Source: Sphingobacteriales bacterium 16-39-50 (GTDB taxonomy: Bacteria > Bacteroidota > Bacteroidia > Sphingobacteriales > Sphingobacteriaceae). From it: a stretch of 64,000 bases of DNA. Positions 3,915-32,623 of this stretch are shown here, one piece after another. Location of the stretch: the NCBI GenBank assembly GCA_002257025.1, contig NCHA01000014.1, positions 4,669 through 68,668 on the forward strand, in the 5' to 3' direction. The translations under genes and the position numbers were made by a program. Positions within the stretch are counted from its first letter, which is position 1. Each line of letters begins with the position of its first letter. Under the pieces are notes generated by a model. That model was given only the letters and a program-made list of their open reading frames with translations. It was not told the origin of the DNA and made no database searches.

Positions 3915-4827
3915 AAAATCGCTGATTCAGAATTCCGTAAAACTTATCTGCAACATTTTGCTTCTCAGCCCAGTTATTCTTGGAAGAATAGTTTTGCTTA
4001 AGGAAATTATCAGCGGACTCAAAACTTTCAAAACGATTCAGTATCTCGATGGCTTCACTATAAGCCAGACTGTAGCCGTTGAACAGATCCCTAACAAATA
4101 CTAACTTGTCATTCAGATTGATCAGGCTTTTCAGGTCTTTCACCTGCCGTTTAGCAAACTGGCTCGAGACTGTCCTTTGAGAAGCCTGAGATGCAAGTAT
4201 CTCATTGATTGTAAGGGGCTGTTCTTCAGCATCAGACTCTTTATTAATGTTAGCCGATTCCTGTATATTATCTTCTTCAAATACTCCAAACACAGGATTT
4301 AAATCAGCTTGAGGTAGTGCTTCTTCAACTTTTTCTGAGTCTGAAGATTCTTCAATTTTCATTTCAGAATCATTCTCAGGCTGGACTTTCAATTGGGTTT
4401 TCTGATCAATTACTTCGATTTCCTCTTCTGTGAGCGGCCTGTCAAATAAATCATGTGCAGCCTTCTCTTCATAATCGAATGATTGAACAGCTTCATCCTT
4501 AATCTCAAATTTCCATTCAGGAATAGTCACTTCATTTTCCTCTTCAATTATGGGGTTTTCAGCAGGCTTCTCACGCACAAATGGCTCCGGCTTTAATATC
4601 TCAGCAGCGACAGCCGGTTCTGGCTCAGGACTATTTGATTTCGAATTATGATTAAGTTTCTGAAGAATTGTAATATGATCGGATAAAAAATCTGCATTGG
4701 CAGCAAAAAGCTCGAGTTCAAGTTCATTCAGATTTTCGGGATCCTGAGACAGATATTCATATTGCTCATTCAATTCTGCAATAATTCCGGCAACTTTCTT
4801 AAAGATTTCTTTCTTATTCATTCTCAT
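3907..4827 (-). CDS. Hypothetical protein (helical N-terminus, acidic linker, compact C-terminal domain); start may be 4821
   Basis: 306-aa ORF with a Bacteroidota-type C-terminus (DLKSLINLNDKLVFVRDLFNG...AIEILN); overlaps the rodA 3' end by 8 bp. Confidence 0.75.
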   Translation of the reverse strand: MRMNKKEIFKKVAGIIAELNEQYEYLSQDPENLNELELELFAANADFLSDHITILQKLNHNSKSNSPEPEPAVAAEILKPEPFVREKPAENPIIEEENEVTIPEWKFEIKDEAVQSFDYEEKAAHDLFDRPLTEEEIEVIDQKTQLKVQPENDSEMKIEESSDSEKVEEALPQADLNPVFGVFEEDNIQESANINKESDAEEQPLTINEILASQASQRTVSSQFAKRQVKDLKSLINLNDKLVFVRDLFNGYSLAYSEAIEILNRFESFESADNFLKQNYSSKNNWAEKQNVADKFYGILNQRFSR

Positions 4828-13700: not shown

Positions 13701-16700
13701 CTACCATCACTGTTACGCCTACAAACAATGGTTGTACCGGGCCCGTTTCGAGCTATACTATTACGGTCAATCCATTGCCTGCGATGAGTCAGCCGGCAAA
13801 TTTGGTGGTTTGTTCAGGAACAACGGTAACGGCAAGCAATTTTGCCAGCAACATTTCAGGTACAACCTATATCTGGACAAATTCAAATCCAGCGATCGGG
13901 CTTTCTGCCAGCGGAACAGGAAATATTCCAAGCTTTACCGCAATAAACTCTTCAATATCAGTCATTTCAGCTACAATTACAGTAAGTCCTGTTTCAAATG
14001 GATGCCCTGGTCAGCAACTAATCTATACTATAACGGTAAATCCTTTACCGGCGATTTCAACCGCCATAGCAACTCCCGAATCACAATGTAACATCAATGA
14101 TGGAACTATTACAATAACAGCCAGTGGTATCCAGCCATTAGAATACTCAATCAATGGAGGAAATACGTTTGTCCAGAATGGGGGCAACTTCACAGGCCTC
14201 GCTGCTGGCAGTTACTCAGTCGTAGTACGCAATGCAAACGGATGCATCATTAACGGTCCAACACTATCTGTCTCCAGTCCGGGGGCCCCGCCTCAACCTG
14301 AAATTAATGCCTATGTCAGCCCTGTATGCCAGGGAGAACCTTTAATTCTCTCAATAATGAACCCAGACCCATTAGCCACATATACATGGACGGGACCATT
14401 GGGATTTTCTGCTATAGGAGCTTCTATCATCCGTTCAAATTCAGATCCTTCGATGTCAGGAAACTATGCTGTAACTGCTACAATTAACGCATGTGTCAGC
14501 ACTTCTAAAATCTTTAATATTAAGGTAGACCCGAAGCCAACCTTAATTGTTCCCCAAAGTCAAAACTATTGTAAAGGTGCCCTTGTTCCGGCACATGTTT
14601 TTAACAGCACTCCTCCGGGAGCCACTATTAGCTGGACAAATTCAAATCCCGCAATCGGTCTTCCAGCCAGCGGAACAGGAAATATACCTTCATTTACAGC
14701 ATCCAATAATACAAATACTCCCATCACCGCAAGTATTAGTGTAACTCCAAGTCTGAATGGGTGTCCGGGTCAGACCTATACATTTACAATTACCATAAAT
14801 CCATTGCCAACTGTTACAGGACCCGGAAATTCTGTGGTATGCGCCGGTGAGACCGTTTCTGCAGGAAATTTAATAAATAATATACCTGCCACCACCTATA
14901 GCTGGACCAATTCAAATCCAGCGATCGGACTTCCAGCAAGTGGAATAGGAAATGTCCCGAGTTTTATCGCAGCGAATTCATCTGGTTCTGCTATTTCAGC
15001 TACAATTACCATAATACCATCATTAAATGGATGTGCTGGTAACCCAATAAGTTATACAATCACAGTTAATCCTTTGCCCGTAATTACAACAACTTTAGCA
15101 ACAAATGAAACTGCTTGTAATCTAAATGATGGTACAATAACGATTACTGCAAATGGCACACAGCCCCTTGAATATTCTATTGATGGGGGCAGCACCTTTA
15201 TTCAGAATGGGGGTAAGTTCACTAACCTAAGTGCCGGTAGTTACTCGGTTGTTGTTAAGAATGCCAGCGGTTGTTTATTAATTGGCCCTACACTTTCTAT
15301 AGCAAGCCCCGGCGCTCCGCCTAAACCAGCTATAAATCCTTATGTTAGTCCGGTATGTCAGGGCGAACCCTTAGTTCTTTCAATTCTTAATCCTGATCCT
15401 CTTGTTACTTACAAATGGACGGGGCCAATGGGTTTTACCGCTACTGGTGTTTCTGTCACACGTCCAAATTCAACTACTTCTATGTCTGGAACATATGCAG
15501 TAACAGGTACATTAAACTCCTGTGTCAGTGTTTCAAAAATCTTTGATATTAAAGTAAATCCCCTTCCCACCTTAGTAGTCCCTCAAAATCAGAACTATTG
15601 TAAAGGAGTTACGGTACCGGAAAGTATTTTTAACAGTACTCCACCCGGTGCCACCATAAGCTGGACGAATTCCAATCCTGCAATTGGACTAGCAGCCAGC
15701 GGGAGCGGCAATGTACCAGCATTTACTGCCACAAATAATTCCTTAGTACCTATAACTGCAACAATAACTGCAATACCAAGCTTAAATGGGTGTAATGGAC
15801 TACCCTATACCTACACTATAACCATTAATCCTGAGCCAACTGTAACTGTTCCATTAAGCTTTACAATATGCTCGGGAACAAAGGTTTCAGCATCTTCATT
15901 TGGAGCTAATATTGCAGGCGTAAATTATACCTGGACCAATTCAAATGCAACCATAGGACTAGCAGCCAGCGGAAATGGAAATGTTCCGGAATTTACCGCT
16001 GTTAATACTACAAGTTCAGCAATTCAGGCATTGATTACTGTAACTCCAACATTAAACGGTTGTTCAGGACCATCTTCAAGTTATATCATAACCGTGAAGC
16101 CGCTTCCCAGACTTAGCAATCCTTTTACCCAAATGCTTTGTACCCAATCCAGTTCAAAAGAGGTCGAACTTACTTCCAATATCCCCGGAACCACTTTCAC
16201 CTGGACTGCAAGTGCCCCGGCTACAGTTTCAGGATATACCCAAAGTGGTACTAATAAGATTCCCATTCAATTTTTAACAAACAGTGGATCAACTCCTGAG
16301 TTTGTAACTTATACGATTATTCCGGTCAATAATGGTTGTACCGGACCTGAAAGTAAATATACTATCTTGGTAAATCCACTTCCAACTGCTACCTTGAGTG
16401 GGGAGAAAAAAGCCTGTTACGGTGCAACAAGTACATTGAGTGTCAAATTGACCGGCAAAGCTCCATGGACAATAAGCTATACCGACGGGGAAAGCTCAAA
16501 CACCATTAGTGGAATAGGTACTAGTGATTATACATTCAATGTCAGTTCAGACTCAAGCAGAACTTATAGAATTACCTCAGTTAGTGATGGCAATTTCTGC
16601 TCTAATACGGGTAATGGCAGTACGGTAATTATTCAGCCACTGGCAGCTATAAAAGCCAGTGCTTCACATATTAACGTTGACTGTTATGGTTCGAATACGG

Positions 16701-18562
16701 GATCTATTCAGGTTGAATCTGTTTCCGGGGGATTCGGTACCTATGAATACAGTATAAATGGCGGAATAAACTGGCAAAGCGGCACAAAATTCAGCGGCCT
16801 GCTTGCAGGAACCTACCAATTATATGTCAGGGATGCTGCTAGTCCCGAGTGTATCACAGTTATATCTCCTGACTATATTATTACTCAGCCTGCAGCCCCT
16901 ATTAGGTTAAGCTATATCCGCACAGATGTTTCATGCTTTGGTGGAAATAACGGTTCTATTAAGATTACAGCAGCCGGAGGAACAGCTCCATACACCTATC
17001 GATGGCAAGGTGGACAAATCACAAAAGATATAAGTGGCCTTGTTGCAGGGACCTATTCCCTTACAATAATAGATTCAAAGGGGTGTGAATACAATGAGTC
17101 TATTGCCATCAGGCAACCACCCACCCCTCTAAGTATCGCCTTTACCAAAATGGATGCAAGTTGCTTTGGCGCCAGAGATGGCAGTATTGAAATTAACGTT
17201 TCTGGTGGTACCTCACCTTATACTTATAAATGGTCAAATAATGAAACCACAAAAAACATACAGAATTTAGCCCCAAATATCAACTATTCGCTCTCGGTGA
17301 TTGATGCAAATGGATGTTCTGAAACAATTAATATACCAATATCTGAACCTGAAATCCTTAAGGCAGCACTAACAGTAAAAAATACGGTCTGTAAAACATC
17401 AATCGATGGGATGATTACTGCCTCAATCACCGGAGGTACAAAGCCATATGATCTGACCTGGAAAGGAAGCCCAATTAAAACCGATTTCATTGATAATCTT
17501 GCACCGGGAACGTATGAACTGTTTATAAAAGATGCTAAAGGATGTTCCCTGATAGTTTCTGCAGAAGTTCTTCAGGGAAGCTGCCCACCTATAGCCATTA
17601 ATGATCGTTTCAAAACCGATGAAGAAATTCCTGTATCAGGCAGTGTTGCCCCGAATGATTATGACCGTCAGGGAGAAAATATCAGTTTTTCACTTACATC
17701 AAATGCAAAAAATGGGACAATAACCTTTAGTCCCGATGGCAACTTCAGTTATACCCCAAATGTTGGATTCTGGGGAATTGAAGTAATCTCTTACCAGGTG
17801 TGCAATACTTCCGGAATGTGTGCTACAGCCTCCCTGATTATTGAAGTTATCCCTTTTACCATAGTTAGTCTGACACCCTCAACAAGCAATGTTTCTGAAG
17901 GTAAAAAAACAGCTATATCTGCAAGATTAATGCGGCCCTTCAGGGATGATGTAACTATCAGGCTAAGCTATCAGGGCCGGGCAAGGAAAGACCTTGATTA
18001 TGTACTATTGGATCAATACGTAAACATTAAGATTCCAAAAGGCAAGATTTCAACCACACAAAAAGTCACCCTGGCTGCATTAACAGATGATGAACAGGAA
18101 GGTGATGAAGATATTAATCTAACTATCATATCAACATCCGACCCACTTGTAAGAATTGGTACTGGTGCTGTAGTGACAATTAATGATGTCTATCCACCCT
18201 TACCAACCATCCCAATTACCACTAAAAATGATCCTCCTTTGAATCCGGACATCCTTCCCGATCCTTTGGTGTCCCCCAATAATGATGGACTTGGCAATGA
18301 ATTTTTTAAAGTTGAGAATATAGTTTCATTTCCTGACAACCTGGTTTTGATCTTCAATCGATGGGGGAATGAAGTTTTCCGTATGCCAGGATATAATGAA
18401 AGTGACAAGGTGTTTTCCGGATATGCCAATACCGGATTGCTCTCAAATACCAATGCTCCTCTAAGTGATGGAGTATATTATTACCTCATCACTACAAACC
18501 GGACGATAAATGGCCAAAAGGTTTCGGCGCTTAATAAAGGGTATCTGATTCTTAAACGATAA
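10721..18562 (+). CDS. Giant T9SS type-B (gliding-motility CTD) surface protein with PKD-like, SprB-like, Ig, cadherin-like and Calx-beta-like repeats
   Basis: Signal peptide; 11 xTWTNSNxxIGL PKD-like repeats plus one variant; SprB-like repeats; PIAINDRFKTDEE cadherin-like unit; CTD SPNNDG...IFNRWGNEVF...GVYYYLI...KGYLILKR. Confidence 0.88.
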   Translation: MMEVLRKLCLSLLITVAGYSKLFGQCTPNDIEFKGVDKIYNTACGDVSYQDIRATTPTGSGLSYQWEVSFKGENYTVVKNGINPIITPELAKSDITNHIIVPNSNASGDYRIRRLVNSTSGCSNYSEPVFLYYAQNSASLSGGTISGSLVTCTSTSGTLTLSGHTGPVLRWERAPVSTGIWENIDNTTNTYTYTNLSESYCYRAYVDNICDKNGTDLYSNTFCVTVNSTPIVTSAPQSQSVCLGSSLNLSVTASSPLTLTYQWRKDGTNINGQTASTLTLSSVGTTDAGSYDVIVSNSCGSTISNPAIIAVNPLPAVIVPANYSICPGTLTTATAFSSNPAGATYTWTNSNTAIGLPANGNGDIPAFTALNSGTTNISSTITVTPILNGCAGPSSSYIITVKPIPVVITPASFSVCSGATVSSTSFSSLPTGASYTWTNSNTSIGLAAAGSNNVPSFTAVNNTASPVSATITVTPTLDGCTGTPSTYTITVNPLPANILASAEGVTNCGISDGKITISATGSAPLQFSIDGGSTFFPNGGIFTNLSAGSYSVAVQNSTGCILVGPTLSVVSPNAPPTPDIFPTGGTVCEGSNLILTIQNPQPGAIYTWRGPSGYSYSGPETSRTIANISSSMAGEYGVTTTVNSCVSIARTFSITVNPLPVVTVPANLTYCAGALIPEGAFISTPAGATYSWTNSNPAIGLAASGNGNITPFFAVNNTISPITATITVIPTLNNCAGPPATFTITVNPRPTVILPADFAICSGASVPVSTFSSNISGTTYTWTNSNSSIGLASNGSGNLPAFSAVNNSTSPISAIITVTPYFNGCAGTASSFTITVNPLPNVNVPVNSTVCSGTSIPASGFSSSQPGTTFSWTNSNTAIGLTGSGSGTVPAFIATNTSAAMITANITVTPFLNGCAGPSSVYTISVNPLPAVTVPANIIVCSGTTVPASAFSSIPAGATYTWTNSNTAIGLAGSGIGNVSAFTAINNTLSPITSTITVTPTNNGCTGPVSSYTITVNPLPAMSQPANLVVCSGTTVTASNFASNISGTTYIWTNSNPAIGLSASGTGNIPSFTAINSSISVISATITVSPVSNGCPGQQLIYTITVNPLPAISTAIATPESQCNINDGTITITASGIQPLEYSINGGNTFVQNGGNFTGLAAGSYSVVVRNANGCIINGPTLSVSSPGAPPQPEINAYVSPVCQGEPLILSIMNPDPLATYTWTGPLGFSAIGASIIRSNSDPSMSGNYAVTATINACVSTSKIFNIKVDPKPTLIVPQSQNYCKGALVPAHVFNSTPPGATISWTNSNPAIGLPASGTGNIPSFTASNNTNTPITASISVTPSLNGCPGQTYTFTITINPLPTVTGPGNSVVCAGETVSAGNLINNIPATTYSWTNSNPAIGLPASGIGNVPSFIAANSSGSAISATITIIPSLNGCAGNPISYTITVNPLPVITTTLATNETACNLNDGTITITANGTQPLEYSIDGGSTFIQNGGKFTNLSAGSYSVVVKNASGCLLIGPTLSIASPGAPPKPAINPYVSPVCQGEPLVLSILNPDPLVTYKWTGPMGFTATGVSVTRPNSTTSMSGTYAVTGTLNSCVSVSKIFDIKVNPLPTLVVPQNQNYCKGVTVPESIFNSTPPGATISWTNSNPAIGLAASGSGNVPAFTATNNSLVPITATITAIPSLNGCNGLPYTYTITINPEPTVTVPLSFTICSGTKVSASSFGANIAGVNYTWTNSNATIGLAASGNGNVPEFTAVNTTSSAIQALITVTPTLNGCSGPSSSYIITVKPLPRLSNPFTQMLCTQSSSKEVELTSNIPGTTFTWTASAPATVSGYTQSGTNKIPIQFLTNSGSTPEFVTYTIIPVNNGCTGPESKYTILVNPLPTATLSGEKKACYGATSTLSVKLTGKAPWTISYTDGESSNTISGIGTSDYTFNVSSDSSRTYRITSVSDGNFCSNTGNGSTVIIQPLAAIKASASHINVDCYGSNTGSIQVESVSGGFGTYEYSINGGINWQSGTKFSGLLAGTYQLYVRDAASPECITVISPDYIITQPAAPIRLSYIRTDVSCFGGNNGSIKITAAGGTAPYTYRWQGGQITKDISGLVAGTYSLTIIDSKGCEYNESIAIRQPPTPLSIAFTKMDASCFGARDGSIEINVSGGTSPYTYKWSNNETTKNIQNLAPNINYSLSVIDANGCSETINIPISEPEILKAALTVKNTVCKTSIDGMITASITGGTKPYDLTWKGSPIKTDFIDNLAPGTYELFIKDAKGCSLIVSAEVLQGSCPPIAINDRFKTDEEIPVSGSVAPNDYDRQGENISFSLTSNAKNGTITFSPDGNFSYTPNVGFWGIEVISYQVCNTSGMCATASLIIEVIPFTIVSLTPSTSNVSEGKKTAISARLMRPFRDDVTIRLSYQGRARKDLDYVLLDQYVNIKIPKGKISTTQKVTLAALTDDEQEGDEDINLTIISTSDPLVRIGTGAVVTINDVYPPLPTIPITTKNDPPLNPDILPDPLVSPNNDGLGNEFFKVENIVSFPDNLVLIFNRWGNEVFRMPGYNESDKVFSGYANTGLLSNTNAPLSDGVYYYLITTNRTINGQKVSALNKGYLILKR

Positions 18563-21919: not shown

Positions 21920-24184
21920 TTAATTAGACCTGAGTTTTAAAGCTTTTAATCTGAGACTATTACTGACCACAGAAACTGAGCTGAGTGCCATTGCTGCCCC
22001 GGCGATCATCGGATCAAGTAAAAAGCCATTGTAACTGTACAAGGCACCTGCCGCAAGCGGAATCCCAATAATATTGTAAATAAAGGCCCAGAACAGGTTT
22101 TGACGAATGGTTTGAACGGTTCTTTTTGAAAGTTTCAATGCCATGGGAATGGACTGCAGGTTAGAGGTAATCAGGGTGATCTTGGCAACATCCATGGCGA
22201 TATCTGAACCTTTTCCCATCGCAATACTCACATCTGCCTGCGCCAGGGCATGAGAATCATTGATCCCATCTCCTACCATTGCAACGACCTTCCCACCAGA
22301 CTGAAGCTGTTTAATGAAATCAGCCTTATCTGAGGGCATAACCTCAGCCCTGTAACTTTTGATACCCACTTCATTTGCTACAGCTGATGCTGTTTGTTTA
22401 TTATCTCCAGTAAGCATATGGACTTCAATACCCATTTCATGCAGTTGACGGATGGCTTCTTTTGAGGAATCCTTCACCTTATCTGCAACAGAAATAATAG
22501 CCAGTACTTTTTCCTGATCAGCAAAATAGATTACCGTATTGGCCTCATGTTGCTTTTTCTGTACATATTTTACCTGATCTGTAGTCAAAAATATATTTTG
22601 CTCTTCCATAAAATGGATATTCCCGGCGAAAAATCCAATCCCATTTTGTATTCCTCTCACTCCCCGGGCTGTGATACTTTCGAACGAATCAAGTGTAACA
22701 CCTGAAATTCCATCCTCTTTTAATTTCATAATTATTGCATCAGCAAGAGGATGCTCAGAATTTACTTCCAGGCTGAACAAAACCTTTAAATAATGATCCT
22801 GATTCTTAATTTCAGGAGCCCAATTCATCGAGGTAACCACTGGCTTGCCCTCAGTGATGGTACCAGTCTTATCAAGAATGACTGCATTAACCTTATAGCC
22901 CAATTCAAGACTTTCGGCATCCTTGATAAGGATATTATTTTCAGCACCCTTACCAACCCCAACCATAATGGCTGTTGGGGTTGCCAGCCCTAAAGCGCAT
23001 GGACAAGCAATGACAAGTACAGTTACCGAAGTAAGTAAAGCATGTGAAAATGCTTGTTCCCCACCTATTAACATCCAGACAGCAAATGTCAGAATCGAAA
23101 TACCTATTACTACCGGAACAAATATTCCCGCTATCTTATCCACCAGCTTTTGAACCGGAGCTTTACTTCCCTGGGCCAATTGGACCATTTTCACGATATG
23201 CGCCAGCAAGGTATCAGCTCCTACTTTTTCGGCTTTAAAATGGAGACTCCCCTTCTGATTAATCGTACCTGCAAATAATTTGTCATTCACTTCTTTCAAT
23301 ACTGCGATCGGTTCACCGCTGATCATGCTTTCATCCAGATAAGATGATCCTGAAACCACAACACCATCTACTGAGACTCTTTCCCCTGGTCTCAGGACAA
23401 TAATCTGACCGGGCATGACCTGTGAAACAGGGATCTCTTCTTCCTTATCATTCAGGAGAATCCGAACCGTTTTAGGCTGTAATCCCATTAATTTTTTAAT
23501 GGCTGTTGTCGTATTCGACTTAGCTTTCTCTTCCAGTAATTTCCCGAAGGATATAAATGCTATAATCACAGCAGCAGCCTCATAATATACATGCGGATGT
23601 ATCCCCCTGTTATGCCAGTATTCAGGGTAGATCGTATTAAATGCGCTGAAAACATAAGCGATTCCAGTGCTCAGAGCCACTAAAGTGTCCATATTCACCA
23701 TCCCATGCTTAGCCTGCTTCCAGGCATTAATAAAGAAGTTTCGGCCAAACCAGAACAGGACGGGAGCGCTCAGTATCATAGATATCCATGTACCATATGG
23801 CATTTCCATGAAAAACATCCCGATTATAAATACAGGTAAGGCAAGAATCGAAGCCCATATCGTCCGAATTCTTAGCTCCCGGTAGCTTTTTATCTGTAAA
23901 GTTTCCTGCAGCTCTGCTGAATTCTCAGTATCGATAATAATATCATATCCAATTGATTGAATACTTTTTTGTAAAGCTGGCGGATTGGTTTTCAGAGTAT
24001 CATACTCTGCCCATGCTGTATTATTCGCAAAATTTACTCCTGCATCAATTACTCCTACTGTAGCTTTAAGCATAGATTCTACACTGATTGCACATCCGGC
24101 ACAGGTCATGCCTGTTACAGGAAACACTGCTCTGATTGTTGTGTTAGAAGCTTCTTTTAATTGAGATTCTGGTTCTTCGTTCAT
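21920..24184 (-). CDS. copA: Cu(I)-translocating P1B-1 ATPase
   Basis: N-terminal GMTCAGC, TM CPC, DKTGT, GDGIND, and YN / MALSS TM signatures. Confidence 0.93.
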   Translation of the reverse strand: MNEEPESQLKEASNTTIRAVFPVTGMTCAGCAISVESMLKATVGVIDAGVNFANNTAWAEYDTLKTNPPALQKSIQSIGYDIIIDTENSAELQETLQIKSYRELRIRTIWASILALPVFIIGMFFMEMPYGTWISMILSAPVLFWFGRNFFINAWKQAKHGMVNMDTLVALSTGIAYVFSAFNTIYPEYWHNRGIHPHVYYEAAAVIIAFISFGKLLEEKAKSNTTTAIKKLMGLQPKTVRILLNDKEEEIPVSQVMPGQIIVLRPGERVSVDGVVVSGSSYLDESMISGEPIAVLKEVNDKLFAGTINQKGSLHFKAEKVGADTLLAHIVKMVQLAQGSKAPVQKLVDKIAGIFVPVVIGISILTFAVWMLIGGEQAFSHALLTSVTVLVIACPCALGLATPTAIMVGVGKGAENNILIKDAESLELGYKVNAVILDKTGTITEGKPVVTSMNWAPEIKNQDHYLKVLFSLEVNSEHPLADAIIMKLKEDGISGVTLDSFESITARGVRGIQNGIGFFAGNIHFMEEQNIFLTTDQVKYVQKKQHEANTVIYFADQEKVLAIISVADKVKDSSKEAIRQLHEMGIEVHMLTGDNKQTASAVANEVGIKSYRAEVMPSDKADFIKQLQSGGKVVAMVGDGINDSHALAQADVSIAMGKGSDIAMDVAKITLITSNLQSIPMALKLSKRTVQTIRQNLFWAFIYNIIGIPLAAGALYSYNGFLLDPMIAGAAMALSSVSVVSNSLRLKALKLRSN

Positions 24185-24276: not shown

Positions 24277-24849
24277 TTAAACCTTGTCAATTGATTTTCT
24301 CTGCCCCTCTGAAGCTCTGGTACTTTTAAATTGAGATGGGGTTTGGCCAGTTACTTTCTTGAACTGGGCAGATAGATGGGCAATACTGCTGTAACCTAAT
24401 TTATTTGCAATTTCACTGAGATTCAATTCATCATAAAACAAGAGCTCTTTAACCCGCTCAATTTTCTGGCGAATAATGTATTGCTCAATAGTAACACCCT
24501 CAACAGAAGAAAATAAGGAGCTTAAATAACCATACTCATGAAATATCTTATCAGAAATAAGCCCTGACCAGTTTACTTTTTGTTCCAGAAACTCTGTATG
24601 GAAGATCTTTTCAATGATTAGATTTTTGATCTGTTCAATTACCCTGCTCTTACCCTTATCCAGTAACTCAAATCCGAGAGCATTCAAATGATTGTTCAGG
24701 ATCAGAAGTTTTTCATCATCAAGTTTCTCCTCCTCCAACTTCACAATACCCATTTGTACATCTATGGGATGCAAATCAAGTTTTAACAGCTCATTTTGAA
24801 CTGCGGTTATGCATCTGTTGCATACCATGTTTTTGATATATAATTCCAT
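24277..24849 (-). CDS. AraC-family regulator with N-terminal HMA-like metal-binding domain
   Basis: N-terminal KNMVCNRC; C-terminal double HTH (YLSSLFSSVEGVTIEQY, LSEIANKLGYSSIAHLSAQFKKVTG). Confidence 0.88.
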   Translation of the reverse strand: MELYIKNMVCNRCITAVQNELLKLDLHPIDVQMGIVKLEEEKLDDEKLLILNNHLNALGFELLDKGKSRVIEQIKNLIIEKIFHTEFLEQKVNWSGLISDKIFHEYGYLSSLFSSVEGVTIEQYIIRQKIERVKELLFYDELNLSEIANKLGYSSIAHLSAQFKKVTGQTPSQFKSTRASEGQRKSIDKV

Positions 24850-24853
24850 AATT

Positions 24854-26056
24854 CTACATTTTGTTCATATCATGTCCCGCCATCGGATCTGTACCCTTTT
24901 TCAAAATAAATTCACTCGATAACAAATATGCACCGCTCACTACTACCTCTTTCACATTTTCAAGGCCTGAAAGGATAATGATCTGTTCGGCATCCTCCTC
25001 ACCCGTACGTACCATCCTCGGGGAGTAGGTATTCTCCGCCGTTTTGATCCAAACATGTGCCCCCTGTTCATCACGCACCACTGCATCCAATGGTAAACTC
25101 AAAGCATCTGATATCTCGGCAAGCGGTAAAAACACAGTAGCATGCATACCTGCCTGTAAATTCCCAGGATTTTTAATCGGGGCTCTTACTTTCAGAATCT
25201 GCGAAGTTGGGTCCATCTGTGGAGAAATGAAATCTATAGTTAGAGTCTGCTCTTTATCACTGATCCCATTAATAGAAGCCTGTACCTTTGTACCCAGACG
25301 GATATTTCCCAATTCATTCGGATAGACATCCATTTCCAGCCAGAGTTGTGTGAAATTTTCAAGTTTTAAAATCTGACTGCCTTCGGATAAATATTGCCCT
25401 TCCGAAACATTCAGTTCGGTGACAATTCCTGATGCTGATGAATAGACAGTGAGCAATGGAGCTGTTTTTCCTGCGGTAGTCAACGCACGGATCTGAGCAT
25501 CAGAATAGCCAAACAAGCGAAGTTTATTTTTTGCTGCCTCCCGCATCGACTGATATATCTTCTCCTCCGGAAATGCCGCAACCTGTTTCAGTTGCAATAA
25601 ATAGTCCTGCTGCAGGGTCTGAAGTTCCTCGCTGTAGATCTGGAAAATCGGCTGGCCTTTACTAACAGACCGGCCCATTTCTTTCACAAACAACTTCTCA
25701 ATTCTTCCGGCATATCGGCTGGAAATAACTTCTGTCTGCTCCGGATTTATAATCAACCGGCCATTCAACACTTTTGAGGTACTGAAGTCAGTACGATTGA
25801 TTACCATAGTATGAATATTAGCCAACTGAATCTGACTTTCACTCAGGGATAGCTCATTTTTCCCGCCTGCAGAATTTACCGGTACCAAATCCATTTTACA
25901 TATCGGACAGGTCCCAGGACCATTATTAACTATCTGAGGATGCATTGGGCAGGTATATTTCCCTGCCTCAGCATGCTTTTCATGCTCCTCAGTACAGGCA
26001 GAGAAAATAAATCCTGAACAAAGAATGATCAGCCCTAAAATTATTTTTGTTCTCAT
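24854..26056 (-). CDS. CusB-like RND membrane fusion protein with heavy-metal-binding domain (copy 2)
   Basis: Lipobox FSAC, YTCPMHP...CPICKMDL, MFP hairpin, C-terminal DPMAGHDM. Confidence 0.88.
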   Translation of the reverse strand: MRTKIILGLIILCSGFIFSACTEEHEKHAEAGKYTCPMHPQIVNNGPGTCPICKMDLVPVNSAGGKNELSLSESQIQLANIHTMVINRTDFSTSKVLNGRLIINPEQTEVISSRYAGRIEKLFVKEMGRSVSKGQPIFQIYSEELQTLQQDYLLQLKQVAAFPEEKIYQSMREAAKNKLRLFGYSDAQIRALTTAGKTAPLLTVYSSASGIVTELNVSEGQYLSEGSQILKLENFTQLWLEMDVYPNELGNIRLGTKVQASINGISDKEQTLTIDFISPQMDPTSQILKVRAPIKNPGNLQAGMHATVFLPLAEISDALSLPLDAVVRDEQGAHVWIKTAENTYSPRMVRTGEEDAEQIIILSGLENVKEVVVSGAYLLSSEFILKKGTDPMAGHDMNKM

Positions 26057-27390
26057 TATAAACGCTTTGCTTTTATAAAACTTTCACTATCTATCAGAAA
26101 CCAGGCGTTAAGTGCCAGTTCCGCATCCGCTTCAAGGCTATCACCAATATCGATCCACTGATCTGCCTGATGCTTCAGCTTCACAAAAACCGGTACAAAT
26201 GCATTATCTTTCTTAACGAATGCCACATATTGTGTTCCAACCTGAACAAGCGCTGTAGCGGGTAGCCAGTAACCTTCAACTGCAGCCTCCCGGCTTACTG
26301 AAATCAGTTGACCAACCTTCCAGATTTTAATACTATTGGGAACATTGGCCCTGATTAGAGAATAATTGGTGCCGTCCTTAAAATAGGGCTGAACCAAGCT
26401 CACTGTTACTTCTGAACGCTGATCTGCAAGATCAATAGACTGAACCATGACACTTTTCCCCTGATTAAACTCCTGCAATTGATCCGGGCGGGCAAAGAAC
26501 TCGGCCCAAACCTGGTCTGTATTGATCAGATCAAATATTTTCTGGCCTGCATTGATATATTGTCCTTCCCTGATTTGCAAAGCCCCACCAGTAGGGATAT
26601 CCGGTATTTCCGGAACTATTGCTGATGAAGCAGAAGCATTCATTGAATTCATACCAACTCCGCTTCCTGAACTGATCTTTGTTCCACTTGCCTGGCTTAC
26701 CGAACCCTGAGAAGCCGGGGTACTTAAACCCAATTCAGCCACATAACCTGAATAAGGACTATAAACAGCAATTCTATCCTCGATTCTGCCTGTACTCAGA
26801 ACCCTGTTTATCTGAGCCATGCTCAATCCAAGAAGTACCAATTTCTTCTTAGCTGATTCAAGAAGCATGGGTTCGTTATTGTTTTTCAGAAAGAGCAATT
26901 CCTGCTGGGCATTTGCCAGATCCGGACTGTAAATCTCCATTATCTTTTGTCCTTTACTAACAGGCTCATAATTGTATTTCACAAACAGCTTTTCAATGCG
27001 ACCGCTTACCCTTGCCGATACTGCCCTCCAGTTATTCGTATTATAGTTTATGATTCCTTTCAGAACGATTTCAGATTTTTTAAGACCCTTCTCAACCCTG
27101 ATCGTTTTTATTCCCGATATAACCAGCTCATTGCTGGGCTTTACTAAGGAATTTAAACTTGTATCCACGGCGCCATGTGTATCTGCATTATGCTGTGGCA
27201 CAAGATCCATTTTACAGATTGGACAGGTACCTGGTGCATCCTTCACTATCTGAGGGTGCATTGGGCAGGTGTATTTCTGAACCTGTCCTCCGGAACCTGC
27301 CTTTTTATCGAAATTACAAGCCAAAATTGATAATCCGATGATCAGGAATAATGCAATTCTAGCGTTCAATAGTCTTCTCATATTCCACAA
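26056..27390 (-). CDS. CusB-like RND membrane fusion protein with heavy-metal-binding domain (copy 1; start probably 27381)
   Basis: Lipobox ILAC, YTCPMHP...CPICKMDL, GRIEKLFVK, YSPDLANAQQELL. Confidence 0.88.
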   Translation of the reverse strand: MWNMRRLLNARIALFLIIGLSILACNFDKKAGSGGQVQKYTCPMHPQIVKDAPGTCPICKMDLVPQHNADTHGAVDTSLNSLVKPSNELVISGIKTIRVEKGLKKSEIVLKGIINYNTNNWRAVSARVSGRIEKLFVKYNYEPVSKGQKIMEIYSPDLANAQQELLFLKNNNEPMLLESAKKKLVLLGLSMAQINRVLSTGRIEDRIAVYSPYSGYVAELGLSTPASQGSVSQASGTKISSGSGVGMNSMNASASSAIVPEIPDIPTGGALQIREGQYINAGQKIFDLINTDQVWAEFFARPDQLQEFNQGKSVMVQSIDLADQRSEVTVSLVQPYFKDGTNYSLIRANVPNSIKIWKVGQLISVSREAAVEGYWLPATALVQVGTQYVAFVKKDNAFVPVFVKLKHQADQWIDIGDSLEADAELALNAWFLIDSESFIKAKRL

Positions 27391-28606
27391 TCATTTGATA
27401 ATATTTCTGTAACTGATCCAGGTAATTCATCTGCGACATATTGATCGATTCCCAACCATCGATGACCGTATTCAAATCTGTTTTGTTTTCCTGATAGGAT
27501 AACATCGAAACCTTGAGGTATTTCTCCAATGAAGGCAAAATCTTAGTCTCATAATTAGTTAACTGCTCCTGCATGTTGAGCAGATCATTTTCCATAGACT
27601 TACTCATCCCCAAAACCTCGGTAAGCATTGCCGCTTTTTCCTGCCTCATAGCCTCCTTCTCAAAATTCATTGATTTGATCTCCGATTTATACATTTTCGA
27701 GGACCAGGGAGCAATTGGAATGGAAAGCATACCCATCACTGTAAATTGCCTTGGCATCATTGCAGAATAATTAGACATATGGTCAAAACGAATTTTAAAA
27801 TCGGGTTTTGACTCCTGCCGCATCAGATCAATATTCCTTTCCATCGCATGAATATCATGCTCCATGTGCAAAATATCGCTCCGGGCACCGGCCAGATAAG
27901 CAGTATCAAGATCTGCTTTAGGACTAAACTTAACCTTATATTCGGTTTCAATTTCAAATTCTGCTGTTGCTGCTCTGTTCATCAATGCATTCAAAGCAAT
28001 CTTTTTTGAACGAATATCTGCCTCAGTCATCAGGATCATATTCTCTGACTCATAGGCCCTTCCCTCAGCTTTAAAAACCTGATTCAATCCACCCTGATTA
28101 AAGGGATAACGAATCTCTGCAAGCTTTTTCATTGTATGCATGATCTGCTGATTTTCCTTCTGGAAGACGATACGCTTTTGAGCTACTAAAAGTCCGAAGT
28201 ACAAATACTTGGCAGCAGCTCTCAATTGGTTAAAACGCTCTGCTCTACCCAACTCATAGGTCTGCGACTGAGTTTTAAGGTATTCTTTTTTAGCCCTGAC
28301 CTTTGCGGGATTGGGAATATCCTGTTCGGCAGAGATCATAAATGCCCCGCGGTCGCCATCAGCGATCATCCCCTGTGCGGGATAAGGACTCATAAAAGTT
28401 CCTGCTCCTACCATTGGAGCCATCCATGAGCCGGCACCTTCCACTTTAGAATCCTTGCTTTGAATCCTGCTCGAATAAGACTTCAAAGAGGGATTATTTG
28501 CGTTAATTTCGGCTAATATTTGCTCCAGATTCATAATCTCCTGTCCGTAGACAGTGAAAGAACTCAGGAATACAAACAATAAAAATATCTTCTTAATGCT
28601 GAACAT
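27359..28606 (-). CDS. TolC/CusC-family outer-membrane channel, Met-rich
   Basis: Signal peptide from MFSIKK (ATG at 28606 overlaps the upstream stop); OEP repeats (NNPSLK, SMLSYQENKTDL). Confidence 0.85.
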   Translation of the reverse strand: MFSIKKIFLLFVFLSSFTVYGQEIMNLEQILAEINANNPSLKSYSSRIQSKDSKVEGAGSWMAPMVGAGTFMSPYPAQGMIADGDRGAFMISAEQDIPNPAKVRAKKEYLKTQSQTYELGRAERFNQLRAAAKYLYFGLLVAQKRIVFQKENQQIMHTMKKLAEIRYPFNQGGLNQVFKAEGRAYESENMILMTEADIRSKKIALNALMNRAATAEFEIETEYKVKFSPKADLDTAYLAGARSDILHMEHDIHAMERNIDLMRQESKPDFKIRFDHMSNYSAMMPRQFTVMGMLSIPIAPWSSKMYKSEIKSMNFEKEAMRQEKAAMLTEVLGMSKSMENDLLNMQEQLTNYETKILPSLEKYLKVSMLSYQENKTDLNTVIDGWESINMSQMNYLDQLQKYYQMIVEYEKTIER

Positions 28607-30533
28607 CGTGTACCTCCAGTTTTCCAAATTTTCTCAATTCATATTCTTTTGTCATCAGAAAGATCAGCGGCGTAACCAGTAAAATATGGGTGGAGGAAGT
28701 AAGTACTCCCCCAATCATAGGCAGAACAATTGGCTGCATCACATCGCTTCCAACCCCACCCGACCATAAAACTGGTATCAAACCAAACAATGCTACACAA
28801 ACCGTCATGATCTTGGGCCGTAAACGCTTGGCAGCTCCATTGATCACATATTCTCTCAGATCTTCCTTTGTAATCGTTTCACTGGAATTGCCTTTCAAAG
28901 CAACTAACTGCCTCATTGCATCATTCAAATAAATCACCATCACAACACCTGTTTCAACGGCAATTCCGAAAAGGGCAATAAAACCAACCGCTACTGCAAC
29001 TGAGAGATTCACACCCCAGAAATAAACCAGGAAAGCACCTCCGATAAGGGCGAAAGGAATGGTCACCAGACTTAAAAATGCCTCTCTGATCGATTTAAAA
29101 GCAAGATAAAGTGCCAGAAAGATGATAAAAATCACTACAGGCAGAATATAGATCAGGGTTTGCTGTCCGCGGATCAGATTTTCATACTGACCGCTCCATT
29201 CTACAAAATATCCATTTGGCAGTTTCAGATCCTTATTCAACTTATCAATAGCCTCCTGAACTGTATGTCCCAGATCGCGCTCACGCACATTGAACATTAC
29301 AGCACCCCGTAAAATTGCATTTTCAGAACTGATCATCGGCGGTCCATCCACAAAACGGATGGCGGTAACGGCTGATAGTGGTATAGTTCCCGCATCAGGA
29401 GAAGTCAATGGAATTCGTTTCAAACGGTCGATACTGTTTCGGTATTCCTGACCTAAGCGCAAATGAATATTAAACCGTTGCCGGCCTTCTACTGTTGATG
29501 CAAAAGGCGCACCCCCAATTGCCGATTCAACTGTCGCATTAATATCATCCACAGTTAATCCATAACGCTCCAACTGGTCGCGTCTGATGTCAATCTCCAG
29601 GTATTTTCCACCACTAACAGGCTCTACATACAGATCCTTCACTCCTTCAATATTCTTCAGCATAGTATGCACATCTTCAGAAATATGGCTGATCTGTTTA
29701 AGATCTTGACCATAAACCTTGACACCAACATCAGTACGGATACCTGTTGAAAGCATATTGATACGGTTGATGATAGGCTGTGTCCAGCCATTCACCACAC
29801 CGGGTATCTGAAGTTTGGCATCTAACTCATCAATGATATCTTTTTTGCTGATTCCGGGTCTCCACTCACTTTTTGGTTTCAGCGAAATGATGGTTTCGAT
29901 CATGCTGATTGGCGAATTATCAGTTGCTGAACTTGCCCGGCCAGCCTTGCCCAAAACATGGTCGACCTCCGGCACTGATTTGATGATCTTATCCTGAACC
30001 TGCAGAATTCGCTTGACCTCTGAATTGGAAACATCAGGCAATGTAACCGGCATAAACAAAATCGATTGCTCATCCAGGGGTGGCATAAATTCCCGTCCAA
30101 GGCTCATCAGCATCGGAACAGAGATTAGCAATGCCAGAATATTAACCCCAAGTGTAGTTTTTCTATTTCTGATACAGGCCCGGATCACCGGAAGGTAAAC
30201 CTTCTCCAAACCTCGGTTGATCGGGTTCTCATGCTCCTGACGGAAACGCCCTTTCATGAAAAATGAAATAATTACGGGAGCCAGTGTAAGCACCAGTACC
30301 GCATCGATTATCAGAATAAAGGTTTTGGTATAGGCCAGCGGATGAAATAACTTCCCTTCCTGCCCGGTAAGTAAAAATACTGGCAGAAATGAGGTGATAA
30401 TAATGATTGTTGAATAAAATACACCTCTTGATACCTGTTGACAGGCTTTTTCGATGATACTTAGTCTTTCCTCGTTAGAAAGTTTAACGTATTCATCATT
30501 CTTTTTTAGTTTCGACTTATTCCACATCTGCAT
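28593..30533 (-). CDS. cusA: CusA/SilA-type RND permease, C-terminal part (TM5-TM12)
   Basis: TSFLPVFLLTGQEGKLF, RLRPKIMT; Met triad equivalents in ILFMP, ISMIET, INMLSTG. Confidence 0.85.
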   Translation of the reverse strand: MQMWNKSKLKKNDEYVKLSNEERLSIIEKACQQVSRGVFYSTIIIITSFLPVFLLTGQEGKLFHPLAYTKTFILIIDAVLVLTLAPVIISFFMKGRFRQEHENPINRGLEKVYLPVIRACIRNRKTTLGVNILALLISVPMLMSLGREFMPPLDEQSILFMPVTLPDVSNSEVKRILQVQDKIIKSVPEVDHVLGKAGRASSATDNSPISMIETIISLKPKSEWRPGISKKDIIDELDAKLQIPGVVNGWTQPIINRINMLSTGIRTDVGVKVYGQDLKQISHISEDVHTMLKNIEGVKDLYVEPVSGGKYLEIDIRRDQLERYGLTVDDINATVESAIGGAPFASTVEGRQRFNIHLRLGQEYRNSIDRLKRIPLTSPDAGTIPLSAVTAIRFVDGPPMISSENAILRGAVMFNVRERDLGHTVQEAIDKLNKDLKLPNGYFVEWSGQYENLIRGQQTLIYILPVVIFIIFLALYLAFKSIREAFLSLVTIPFALIGGAFLVYFWGVNLSVAVAVGFIALFGIAVETGVVMVIYLNDAMRQLVALKGNSSETITKEDLREYVINGAAKRLRPKIMTVCVALFGLIPVLWSGGVGSDVMQPIVLPMIGGVLTSSTHILLVTPLIFLMTKEYELRKFGKLEVHDVQH

Positions 30534-31821
30534 TTCCTCCTTTTCTTTGTTCGTTTAATTCTGCCTGCCTGACTGCAAGGTTTTTGTAAGAATTCTCTGC
30601 CATGATGATTCCGTTATCGACAATCACACCAATCGCCAGTGCGATACCGGTTAATGACATGATATTCGATGAAATATCAAATGCATTCAGCAAAATGAAA
30701 CTGGCAGCAATGGTGATTGGGATCTGAATGATGATGCTGATGGCACTTCTCCAGTGAAAGAGGAAAATGATAACGATCAGAGATACCACGATCATCTCTT
30801 CGATCAGGGTAGTTTTAATGGAAGATATTGATTCTGCAATCAATTCACCCCGGTCGTAAACAATATTGAACTTCATCCCCTGGGGTAAACCCTTAGCTAC
30901 TTCAGTCATTTTTGTCTTCACTTTGCGGATCACTTCATCGGCATTCTCACCATAACGTAATACCACAATCCCTCCAACCGCTTCTCCTTCACCATTATAA
31001 TCGAAGATGCCGAGACGGCTTTCTCCGGCCATCTGAACGGTTCCGATATCCCTGATCTTCACAGGAATAGAGTTTTGAGTTCTTACCGCAAGATTTTCGA
31101 TCTCTTCAATAGATTTAAGGTAACCACTGGTTTTAATAATATAACCGATGCCACTCATCTCAAACTTCCTTCCTCCGGCCTCATTATTATTACTCTTTAC
31201 TGCCCGCATTACATCCTGAATACTAAGCTTATAGTAAGTCAGACGGTTCGGGTCAATACTGATCTGATACTGTTTCTGGAAACCACCAAATGAAGCGATC
31301 TCACTCACTCCTGCTACATTCTGAAGGGCAAATTTGATGTACCAGTCCTGAACAGCCCGCTGCTCTCCAAGATCCATTCCCGGAGCTTCGAGGGTGTACC
31401 ATAGTACATGACCGACTCCGGTTCCATCGGGGCCAAGCGTCGGACTAACACCTTCGGGCAAAACATTGCCGATTGAATTGAGGCGCTCCAATACCCTGGA
31501 CCGTGCCCAGTAAACATCCACATCATCTTCAAAAATGATGTAGATAAAACTCATTCCGAACATGGAATTGGCACGCACATAATTCACTTTGGGCAATCCC
31601 TGAAGATTAGTAACCAAAGGGTAAGTGATCTGATCTTCAATGATCTGCGGACTACGTCCCATCCATTCAGTGAAAACGATGACCTGATTTTCCGAAAGGT
31701 CCGGAATAGCATCAATCTTACTCGTCTTGACCGAATAGAGTCCCCATCCAAAAAATCCGGCTGCAAAAAGCAAGACAATGAAACGGTTCCTTAAAGAAAA
31801 GGAAATGATCTTTTCAACCAT
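30517..31821 (-). CDS. cusA: CusA/SilA-type RND permease, N-terminal part (TM1-TM4)
   Basis: MVEKIISFSLRNRF, DAIPDLSENQVIV, GPDGTGVG, GIALAIGVIVDNGIIMAEN; ends shortly after TM4. Confidence 0.85.
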   Translation of the reverse strand: MVEKIISFSLRNRFIVLLFAAGFFGWGLYSVKTSKIDAIPDLSENQVIVFTEWMGRSPQIIEDQITYPLVTNLQGLPKVNYVRANSMFGMSFIYIIFEDDVDVYWARSRVLERLNSIGNVLPEGVSPTLGPDGTGVGHVLWYTLEAPGMDLGEQRAVQDWYIKFALQNVAGVSEIASFGGFQKQYQISIDPNRLTYYKLSIQDVMRAVKSNNNEAGGRKFEMSGIGYIIKTSGYLKSIEEIENLAVRTQNSIPVKIRDIGTVQMAGESRLGIFDYNGEGEAVGGIVVLRYGENADEVIRKVKTKMTEVAKGLPQGMKFNIVYDRGELIAESISSIKTTLIEEMIVVSLIVIIFLFHWRSAISIIIQIPITIAASFILLNAFDISSNIMSLTGIALAIGVIVDNGIIMAENSYKNLAVRQAELNEQRKGGNADVE

Positions 31822-31826
31822 TTTGC

Positions 31827-32090
31827 TTAGTGCTTATGATCGTGACTGCTGCTATCAGTCATCATGCTGTCTGACTTGATATCCGAATCTTTAACAAGAT
31901 CCATTTTGCAGATTGAACAAGTACCCGGTTTGTCGCTTGTTATTTCAGGGTGCATCGGACATGTATATCCTACTCCTGCAGTTTGGCTGGTTAATGAATC
32001 AGTTTTTGCTTCTGCTGGTTTTTCTGAGCTATTGCATGCAGCGCTGAATAAAAGAACCATAATTGCGATTGAATAAATTAATTTTCTCAT
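31827..32090 (-). CDS. Small heavy-metal-binding-domain (HMBD) lipoprotein with His-rich tail
   Basis: Start moved to MRKLI (32090); lipobox SAAC; YTCPMHPEITSDKPGTCSICKMDLV; tail SHDHKH. Confidence 0.85.
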   Translation of the reverse strand: MRKLIYSIAIMVLLFSAACNSSEKPAEAKTDSLTSQTAGVGYTCPMHPEITSDKPGTCSICKMDLVKDSDIKSDSMMTDSSSHDHKH

Positions 32091-32227: not shown

Positions 32228-32623
32228 TCAGATACGGAAATTACAGTTTCGAATGAAAACAGCAGTTTTCAATGTTCGTGGAGGAGCATTACTCTCAGGA
32301 ATCAGATCCGCAGGAGTGTTTGGCAGTATTTTGGTAAAGTCAGGATAAGTGACAGGTGCTAAAGAAAAAACTATAGGTTGAAAGGTACTTAGCGGAGCTT
32401 TTTGAGATTCCTTTAGCTTATATTCCTGTTTCTGATCTTTACAACAGTCCTCAGAAAGGCCCTTCTTCATGCCGCAATTGCTGCAATTGGCTGCTTTTTC
32501 TGACTTGTCACCAGAAAGCCCCCACTCGATCAGCTCTCCCATACAATAATGGAAATGCACAGTCGCCCCGGATGAAACACCCAGGTAGAATACAGCTAAA
32601 ACGGTGATTAAAAGCCTTTTCAT
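32228..32623 (-). CDS. HYC_CC_PP family protein
   Basis: HFHYC, CSNCGM, CCKD and NAPP motifs; first gene of the metal-efflux operon. Confidence 0.8.
   Translation of the reverse strand: MKRLLITVLAVFYLGVSSGATVHFHYCMGELIEWGLSGDKSEKAANCSNCGMKKGLSEDCCKDQKQEYKLKESQKAPLSTFQPIVFSLAPVTYPDFTKILPNTPADLIPESNAPPRTLKTAVFIRNCNFRI

Follow-up and report, generated by a model that had tools for sequence, protein, structure and literature searches.

Does a cusA-like gene that falls into two overlapping open reading frames (ORFs) represent a broken gene, a recoded gene or a pump made of two chains? This question is raised by a locus on contig NCHA01000014.1 of Sphingobacteriales bacterium 16-39-50 (assembly GCA_002257025.1), where two neighbouring ORFs on the minus strand together correspond to one transporter of the CusA type, within the resistance-nodulation-division (RND) superfamily. 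The window analysed is a stretch of 64,000 nucleotides (nt) spanning positions 4,669 to 68,668 of that contig, and coordinates given below are those of the window unless a locus is named. A sequence-only reading had favoured a natural two-chain pump, split after the fourth transmembrane (TM) helix into 4 + 8 helices, over a frameshift mutation or assembly error, and the comparative data side with a natural split. We consider it very probable that the locus encodes a CusA-type heavy-metal RND transporter whose protomer is built from two separately translated chains, created by one old cut and kept since with few re-fusions.

The split gene and its junction comprise these features:

30517..31821, minus strand: cusA N-part, 434 amino acids (aa), matching positions 1-430 of the TIGR00914 model with 455 bits

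28593..30527, minus strand: cusA C-part, 644 aa from the conserved ATG at 30527, matching TIGR00914 positions 428-1036 with 622 bits

30517..30527, minus strand: N/C overlap of 11 nt (ATGTGGAATAA), from the C-part start codon to the N-part stop codon

30536..30541, minus strand: AGGAGG, a Shine-Dalgarno (SD)-like element 8 nt upstream of the ATG at 30527 and inside the N-part tail (Lys-Gly-Gly)

The minus-strand sequence across the junction is CAA AGA AAA GGA GGA AAT GCA GAT GTG GAA TAA, and the C-part lies in the +1 frame relative to the N-part, with ATG codons at 30533 and 30527. Counted from the first of these (28593..30533), the C-part ORF is 646 aa long and overlaps the N-part by 17 nt, while the overlap from ATG 30527 is 11 nt. 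Upstream, the +1 frame is open only as far as 30554, and deletion of one A from the A4 run at 30544-30541 would yield a single fused ORF. The sequence-only reading had described the two ORFs (434 and 646 aa), the junction sequence with its +1 frame and 17-nt overlap (measured from the first ATG), the AGGAGG at 30541-30536 and the fusing effect of one lost A, and all of these were recovered. In a hydropathy scan the N-part showed 4 TM segments and the C-part 8, and positions 1-419 and 415-1019 of the Pfam ACR_tran model map to the N-part and the C-part, respectively. By homology, the N-part contains TM1, the periplasmic N-half (PN1/PN2/DN), TM2-TM4 and the proton-relay aspartate D402, and the C-part contains TM5-TM7, the periplasmic C-half with a methionine triad, and TM8-TM12, where the counterparts of E939 and K984 of Escherichia coli CusA lie.

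E. coli CusA was the best PDB match for both halves, with E-values of 1e-117 (N-part) and 5e-156 (C-part) and an identity of ~40% across the whole length. In native numbering, N-part residues 1-417 align with CusA 1-420, and C-part residues 17-626 with CusA 429-1036. As read from this alignment, the Met triad M573/M623/M672 of CusA corresponds to C-part M161, M211 and M260 (646-aa numbering), bearing out the earlier claim that the three Cu(I)-binding Met equivalents are intact. Among the proton-relay residues, D405 (TM4) corresponds to N-part D402, E939 (TM10) to C-part E527 and K984 (TM11) to the K of RLRPK, and the relay is therefore divided across the chains, with the D405 equivalent on the N-part and the E939/K984 equivalents on the C-part. 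The two halves combined cover the TIGR00914 model (CusA/CzcA heavy-metal efflux RND; HME-RND) end to end; at 455 and 622 bits each half falls short of the cut-off of 701 bits, and the summed score passes it. Likewise, the 12 TM helices and the large periplasmic loops TM1-2 and TM7-8 are present only in both chains taken jointly, and the single polypeptide of ~1000-1100 aa that marks the family is replaced here by two ORFs in different frames. Judged by these sequence features, the pump is a CusA-type HME-RND transporter in predicted structure and function, showing each defining feature examined apart from the single polypeptide.

The fit between the halves was modelled with AlphaFold2, for which they were joined as an artificial single chain and supplied with an alignment of 52 diverse full-length relatives (cluster representatives). 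The resulting model reached a predicted local distance difference test score (pLDDT) of 91.9 and a predicted template modelling score (pTM) of 0.88, and its comparison with E. coli CusA in Foldseek gave a TM-score of 0.93/0.97 and a root-mean-square deviation of 1.9 A. The TM4 helix runs up to residue 426 and the next helix begins at residue 452, with pLDDT below 50 confined to residues 434-442, at the junction. The model thus shows the halves as complementary parts of one CusA-like protomer, with the cut placed in its sole loop predicted to be disordered.

The junction was checked on assembled contigs (Logan) from both DNA and RNA. The exact 434-aa N-part was recovered from 13 contigs (NCBI, ENA and Logan assemblies), in each case with the C-part (644/646 aa) following it. 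More than 120 distinct homologues with 90-100% identity are found in the protein database, most of them 434 aa long and some called as 418 aa; they are assigned to Daejeonella and Sphingobacterium under generic names (CzcA-family, efflux RND permease subunit). Contigs from 4 DNA runs of 4 studies span the junction with substitutions only and no indel, and metatranscriptome contigs of 191, 905 and 1097 nt (4 RNA runs) cross it gap-free, indicating that the halves are co-transcribed and that the RNA, too, lacks an indel. Genomes of isolates carry the split as well, among them complete chromosomes (NZ_CP196710.1, locus L068). At one locus (L006:1544-3555, GCA_035429285.1), the C-part is broken again into 434 + 232 aa on a contig that is otherwise identical; in contrast to the conserved N/C split, this extra break is probably a local frameshift or assembly error.

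To what extent relatives share the cut was scored in a scan of one genome per species, in which 80 loci were found (75-99% identity; Sphingobacteriales, Cytophagales, Chitinophagales and Flavobacterium), including type strains, complete chromosomes and a plasmid; one of the 80 was left out of scoring, as its contig stops before the junction. The gene is split in the TM4-TM5 loop at 73 of the 79 scorable species-level loci, which represent five orders of Bacteroidota, and is a single fused ORF at 6. Close homologues are thus clearly not all full-length single genes, and those that are split have been cut in the same loop with diverse new junctions: the C-part lies in the +1 frame (n = 37), in the +2 frame (n = 20) or in the same frame interrupted by at least one stop (n = 16), and TAA, TAG and TGA all occur as N-part stop codons. 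In every split locus long enough to show both halves, these are neighbours in constant order. The ratio of non-synonymous to synonymous substitution rates (dN/dS), for the pairs with measurable dS among 17 pairs, was 0.011-0.048 in the N-part and C-part alike, and both parts are under strong purifying selection. The marks of a pseudogene (relaxed selection, sporadic distribution, decay) are absent: the arrangement is clade-wide, and an extra break is confined to L006. Apparent N-parts of 506-511 aa in L067/L073 and of 436 aa in L035 were discarded as tblastn alignments that overran the stop codon.

Junction distances, scored by script for 59 loci, revealed that the N-part stop overlaps the C-part start in 30 of them, typically by 8, 11 or 14 nt (with 3 outliers), and that the two are 0-30 nt apart in 18, 31-150 nt in 7 and more than 150 nt in 4, the longest spacer measuring 686 nt. 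The 4 loci with the longest spacers harbour a complete gene between the halves, which places their junction beyond the reach of frameshifting or readthrough. In Pontibacter oryzae (L039:5288-5742) and P. chitinilyticus (L060:5276-5703) this is a 121-aa gene of the 23S_rRNA_IVP family (PF05635), and a TTTTGAATAACTGAAT-like motif occurs in inverted copies on either side of the Pontibacter insert. Motifs related to it, ATTCAAAA(TTGAA), stand just 5' of the C-part ATG in other Hymenobacteraceae (L049, L055, L057, L064, L068, L070). In Chitinophaga japonensis (L076:5295-5954, ~219 aa) and Spirosoma sordidisoli (L081:5376-6005, ~209 aa) the intervening genes encode class I S-adenosylmethionine-dependent methyltransferases, and these two insertions appear to be unrelated.

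Where the C chain begins can be judged from close relatives. The first ATG is missing from L013-L017, and in L014 a stop follows its position; since only the second ATG is always available, the C chain most likely starts at ATG 30527, which would give 644 aa and an overlap of 11 nt. Across the clade this start leads into a common type of head, in which the Met is followed by a Lys/Arg-rich stretch (types MWNKSKLKK, MVKKLFSRNYNKI and MKRIKNIFRKKPQW). The new C-part N-terminus carries a net positive charge in 55 of 59 loci (mean +2.6), and such a basic head is present neither in most fused forms nor in CusA. It may serve the positive-inside rule, letting TM5 insert by itself.

The sequence-only reading had also relied on the AGGAGG as a signal for this start. 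Bacteroidia ribosomes sequester their anti-SD and Bacteroidia genes go without SD sequences (PMC7797042, PMC9976891), and in the window an SD-like motif accompanies just 1 of 40 other ORF starts. As a general rule in Bacteroidia the SD argument therefore fails, because their ribosomes largely ignore the SD (PMC7797042) and SD-like starts are this scarce. The choice of ATG 30527 stood, as GGAG(G) and ATG are conserved synonymously within the subclade of the window. More specifically, each of the 19 loci in the Sphingobacteriales subclade (L011-L028, L038) has GGAG(G) upstream of the C-part ATG, at a distance of 5-8 nt, while the peptide encoded over it varies (KGG, TGG, IGG, KGE, KGA). At the SD core, 17 of 17 loci use GGA as the Gly codon, and the embedded ATG does not vary; in 28 other invariant Gly columns the third-position majority averages 0.42, and none of 77 other invariant four-fold-degenerate columns reaches a third-position conservation of 0.9. 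A second such element lies at the other end of the C-part:

28613..28617, minus strand: GGAGG, 6 nt upstream of the ATG of the outer-membrane factor (OMF) gene, within the C-part coding sequence

This second GGAGG is conserved only in the subclade where the C-part and OMF genes overlap; other subclades encode the same K-L-E-V by cttgaagta, and their OMF gene does not overlap. The conservation at synonymous sites argues that the GGAGG elements are selected at the nucleotide level where starts overlap an upstream gene, and hints at SD-assisted translational coupling in an 'SD-blind' phylum.

The age of the cut was approached through more distant relatives. In a library holding one protein per 50%-identity cluster, the split group collapses to a single 427-aa representative, and the relatives that come next (50% identity or less) are either full-length or fragments. 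Outgroup loci (Ignavibacteria, Melioribacter, Geobacterales and others; at most 57% identity) all consist of one uninterrupted ORF (1039-1139 aa), and they root the clade. In a neighbour-joining tree built from the two halves in concatenation (50 bootstraps), the Bacteroidota clade was supported at 100%, and its most basal member, L170 from a Bacteroidales metagenome-assembled genome, is split. Fused forms occur in 4 separate places of the tree beside split sisters, with a support of 84-100%, and the most parsimonious history for these sequences is a single old fission with three or four later re-fusions.

The linkers of three fused forms (L138, L044 and L051) consist of palindromic hairpin elements that are rich in GC and read in frame; their folding energies are -56, -40 and -23 kcal/mol, respectively. 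Their motif is CCTCACCC..CCCTCTCC..GGAGAGGG..GGGTGAGG, encoding PLS(S/F)GEG(F/P)(R/G)V-like peptides (aa 418-462 of the fused ORF in L138). In sequence, these linkers look like an intergenic repeat, similar to repetitive extragenic palindromes (REP) or miniature inverted-repeat transposable elements (MITE), that was absorbed into the coding sequence, as expected if such a repeat had landed in the spacer and bridged the two genes. A candidate for a second independent split clade, suggested by the ~450-aa cluster representatives P0172 and P0173, was rejected, as these proved to be contig-end fragments running into TM5.

We therefore propose that an ancestral gene was cut once in the cytoplasmic TM4-TM5 loop, in the ancestor of a clade now spread across Bacteroidota. 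The N and C genes are co-transcribed with those of an outer-membrane factor and CusB-like adaptors. The N chain of 434 aa would provide TM1-4 and the N-terminal periplasmic half, and the C chain of 644 aa TM5-12 and the C-terminal periplasmic half. The latter would start at ATG 30527, probably by translational coupling aided by the conserved GGAGG, and its Lys/Arg-rich N-terminus may hold that end in the cytoplasm and thereby orient TM5. In the membrane, the chains would then assemble to a CusA-like protomer whose proton relay spans both of them and whose putative Cu(I)/Ag(I) Met triad lies wholly on the C chain.

Other accounts of the locus have to be weighed against this proposal. A homopolymer miscall in the A run could mimic a split, and a short A run does adjoin the junction, but finding the same N-part on 13 contigs from different projects and assemblers, no indel in the contigs of 4 DNA and 4 RNA runs, and the split in complete chromosomes of isolates leaves an assembly or sequencing error with a negligible probability. 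It is extremely improbable that a recent frameshift turned cusA into a pseudogene in this particular genome: while a single A deleted from the run at 30544-30541 would indeed give back one ORF, 73 of 79 species-level relatives share the split with differing junction sequences and frames, dN/dS is as low as 0.011-0.048 in both halves, and the start codon and SD core are kept at synonymous sites. The halves might also no longer form one transporter, either because one alone is functional or because they have taken on separate roles. Assembly of the chains is a prediction, which leaves room for this account; yet the halves stand adjacent and in the same order in all split loci that reach far enough, have equally low dN/dS, are each by themselves an incomplete helix bundle (4 or 8 TM), divide the proton-relay residues between them, are together modelled as a complete CusA fold, and give ordinary full-length genes on re-fusion. 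Independent functions of the halves are therefore unlikely, and the wider possibility that they have ceased to be one transporter is very unlikely.

Recoding, by programmed +1 frameshifting or by readthrough in same-frame relatives, could instead make a full-length chain the main product, with the junction acting as a regulatory device like that of prfB. Such a device would suit a frame that is always +1 in the subclade of the window and a GGAGG conserved just upstream, and the intragenic SD at the prfB frameshift site has been kept in Sphingobacteriales (PMC10798248). No slippery codon is conserved, however, as the codon before GGA is AAA, ACT, ATG, ATT, AAG, GAA, AAT or AAC depending on the locus, and the distance of the SD is 16 nt to the stop and 5-8 nt to the strictly conserved ATG, a spacing of the initiation type, whereas that in prfB is 3 nt. 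Furthermore, the C-part occurs in frame +1, +2 or 0 within the clade, spacers with several stops or whole genes could not be bridged by a single recoding event, and the conserved Met with its basic head makes sense only as a genuine N-terminus. Programmed +1 frameshifting was rejected as a general mechanism on the grounds of codon, spacing and the three frames, and stop-codon readthrough in same-frame relatives because many spacers hold at least two stops, with TAA predominant. A main product arising by recoding is thus highly improbable.

Some points nevertheless count against the two-chain pump as proposed. The production of two chains and their assembly are predicted from nucleotide sequences, and the AlphaFold2 model, having been run on an artificial single chain, speaks to the complementarity of the halves and not to their assembly. 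Within the subclade of the window, the invariable +1 frame and the ever-present SD-like element leave room for a minor frameshifted full-length product. Bacteroidia ribosomes reportedly ignore SD sequences (PMC7797042, PMC9976891), which clouds how a conserved GGAGG would act, and the specificity for Cu(I)/Ag(I) is inferred from sequence comparison. Finally, the near-basal fused form L149 is placed with a bootstrap of only 38% in a neighbour-joining tree of 50 bootstraps, and with its position this poorly resolved there may have been two fissions rather than one.

The two-chain pump can be set beside better-known systems. E. coli CusA, the HME-RND component of the CusCFBA Cu(I)/Ag(I) efflux system (PDB 3K07, 3NE5, 4DNT), is alike in predicted fold, Met triad and relay residues, and in both cases CusB-like adaptors and an outer-membrane factor are encoded in the operon. 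However, CusA is one chain of 1047 aa, whereas two genes (434 + 644 aa) encode the protomer here, the cut lying in the cytoplasmic loop between TM4 and TM5, and the C chain has a new basic N-terminus that CusA lacks. The second-best solved relative, ZneA (CzcA-like, PDB 4K0E), has the same HME-RND fold and is a single chain of the divalent-cation type; it is not known to have a Met triad. SecD/SecF and half-size RND proteins, which belong to the RND superfamily and occur as two polypeptides or as a fusion depending on the lineage, resemble the present case in that two chains can make up an RND fold. Proteins of the SecD/SecF type are cut at the boundary of the internal repeat, between TM6 and TM7 (6+6 TM), whereas the break here, between TM4 and TM5, is an asymmetric 4+8 one inside the first repeat that parts TM4 from its relay partners TM10/TM11. 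The heteromeric RND pump MdtB/MdtC is encoded by two adjacent genes that are both required for one pump (PMC7015380). Its subunits are two full-length 12-TM paralogues in a heterotrimer, while here two fragments would make up one protomer. The 4+8 protomer is thus an arrangement distinct from both SecD/SecF (6+6) and MdtBC (a full-length paralogue pair). No description of a split CusA/CzcA or of an asymmetrically split RND protein was found in the literature searched, including one paper looked at more closely (PMC2448597), which does not prove the split undescribed.

The split gene stands in a metal-resistance cluster, whose other genes are:

32228..32623, minus strand: DUF8199 / HYC_CC_PP family protein, 131 aa, whose gene opens the cluster and is syntenic in many relatives

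31827..32090, minus strand: small heavy-metal-binding domain (HMBD; PF19335) protein directly upstream of the N-part, 87 aa as called on identical contigs

27359..28606, minus strand: outer-membrane factor (OEP/CusC-like), 415 aa, its start overlapping the C-part end by 14 nt

26056..27381, minus strand: membrane-fusion protein 1 (MFP1; CusB-like), 441 aa, with an N-terminal HMBD, overlapping the OMF gene by 23 nt

24854..26056, minus strand: membrane-fusion protein 2 (CusB-like), 400 aa, with an N-terminal HMBD, overlapping MFP1 by 1 nt

24277-24849, minus strand: AraC-type regulator, further downstream in the same orientation

21920-24184, minus strand: P1B-type heavy-metal ATPase, likewise downstream and co-oriented

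Gene calls on an identical contig and the window coordinates agree with the three overlaps (14, 23 and 1 bp) listed in the sequence-only reading, and the ORF of the small HMBD protein is open to 32183, which would make it 118 aa. The adaptors are of the HlyD_D23/CusB type with HMBD, and adaptor and OMF genes are adjacent, as in tripartite RND operons; the gene order N, C, OMF, MFP is constant across the clade. Unlike CusCFBA, the operon comprises tandem CusB-like adaptor genes (24854-27381), each with an N-terminal PF19335, together with the separate small HMBD protein, and no CusF was recognisable in the metal-resistance cluster. Two-adaptor RND pumps are rare, TriABC being an example. Upstream of the cluster lies an ORF of 2613 aa on the plus strand (10721-18562).

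Near-identical copies of the operon (L001-L012, 97-100% protein identity) are labelled as Daejeonella and as Sphingobacterium, and on one contig an IS110 transposase adjoins the cluster (L003:19-1026). One relative, L047, resides on plasmid pFLIM01 (NC_019017.1) of Fibrisoma limi, and the gene tree departs from taxonomy in places, with Dyadobacter clustering with Chitinophaga and Flavobacterium. Horizontal transfer of the operon is probable.

RND pumps are regarded as one-chain proteins with 12 helices, and the only familiar two-chain forms are divided 6+6. A phylum-wide 4+8 form would assign the essential aspartate of TM4 to one polypeptide and its partners in TM10/TM11 to the other, and would offer a natural system for studying how an RND protomer is inserted, folded and assembled, and for engineering cut sites. 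The re-fusions through palindromic elements and the genes inserted between the halves give an unusually detailed picture of the dynamics of gene fission and fusion. The generic database names are explained by each half scoring below the TIGR00914 cut-off, and a large survey of RND proteins removed hits shorter than 852 aa (PMC10872679); because of this cut-off and length filter, Cu/Ag efflux in Bacteroidota is likely under-counted or generically labelled. At the level of translation, the synonymously conserved SD-like elements at overlapping starts bear on the role of the anti-SD in Bacteroidia. It is conceivable, though on balance doubtful, that the 4+8 split is ancient and selectively maintained, more than a tolerated accident, and that its expression in Sphingobacteriales depends on GGAGG at overlapping internal starts (N/C and C/OMF). 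If true, this would mean that the ribosomes of a supposedly SD-blind phylum use SD pairing for termination-reinitiation coupling inside operons.

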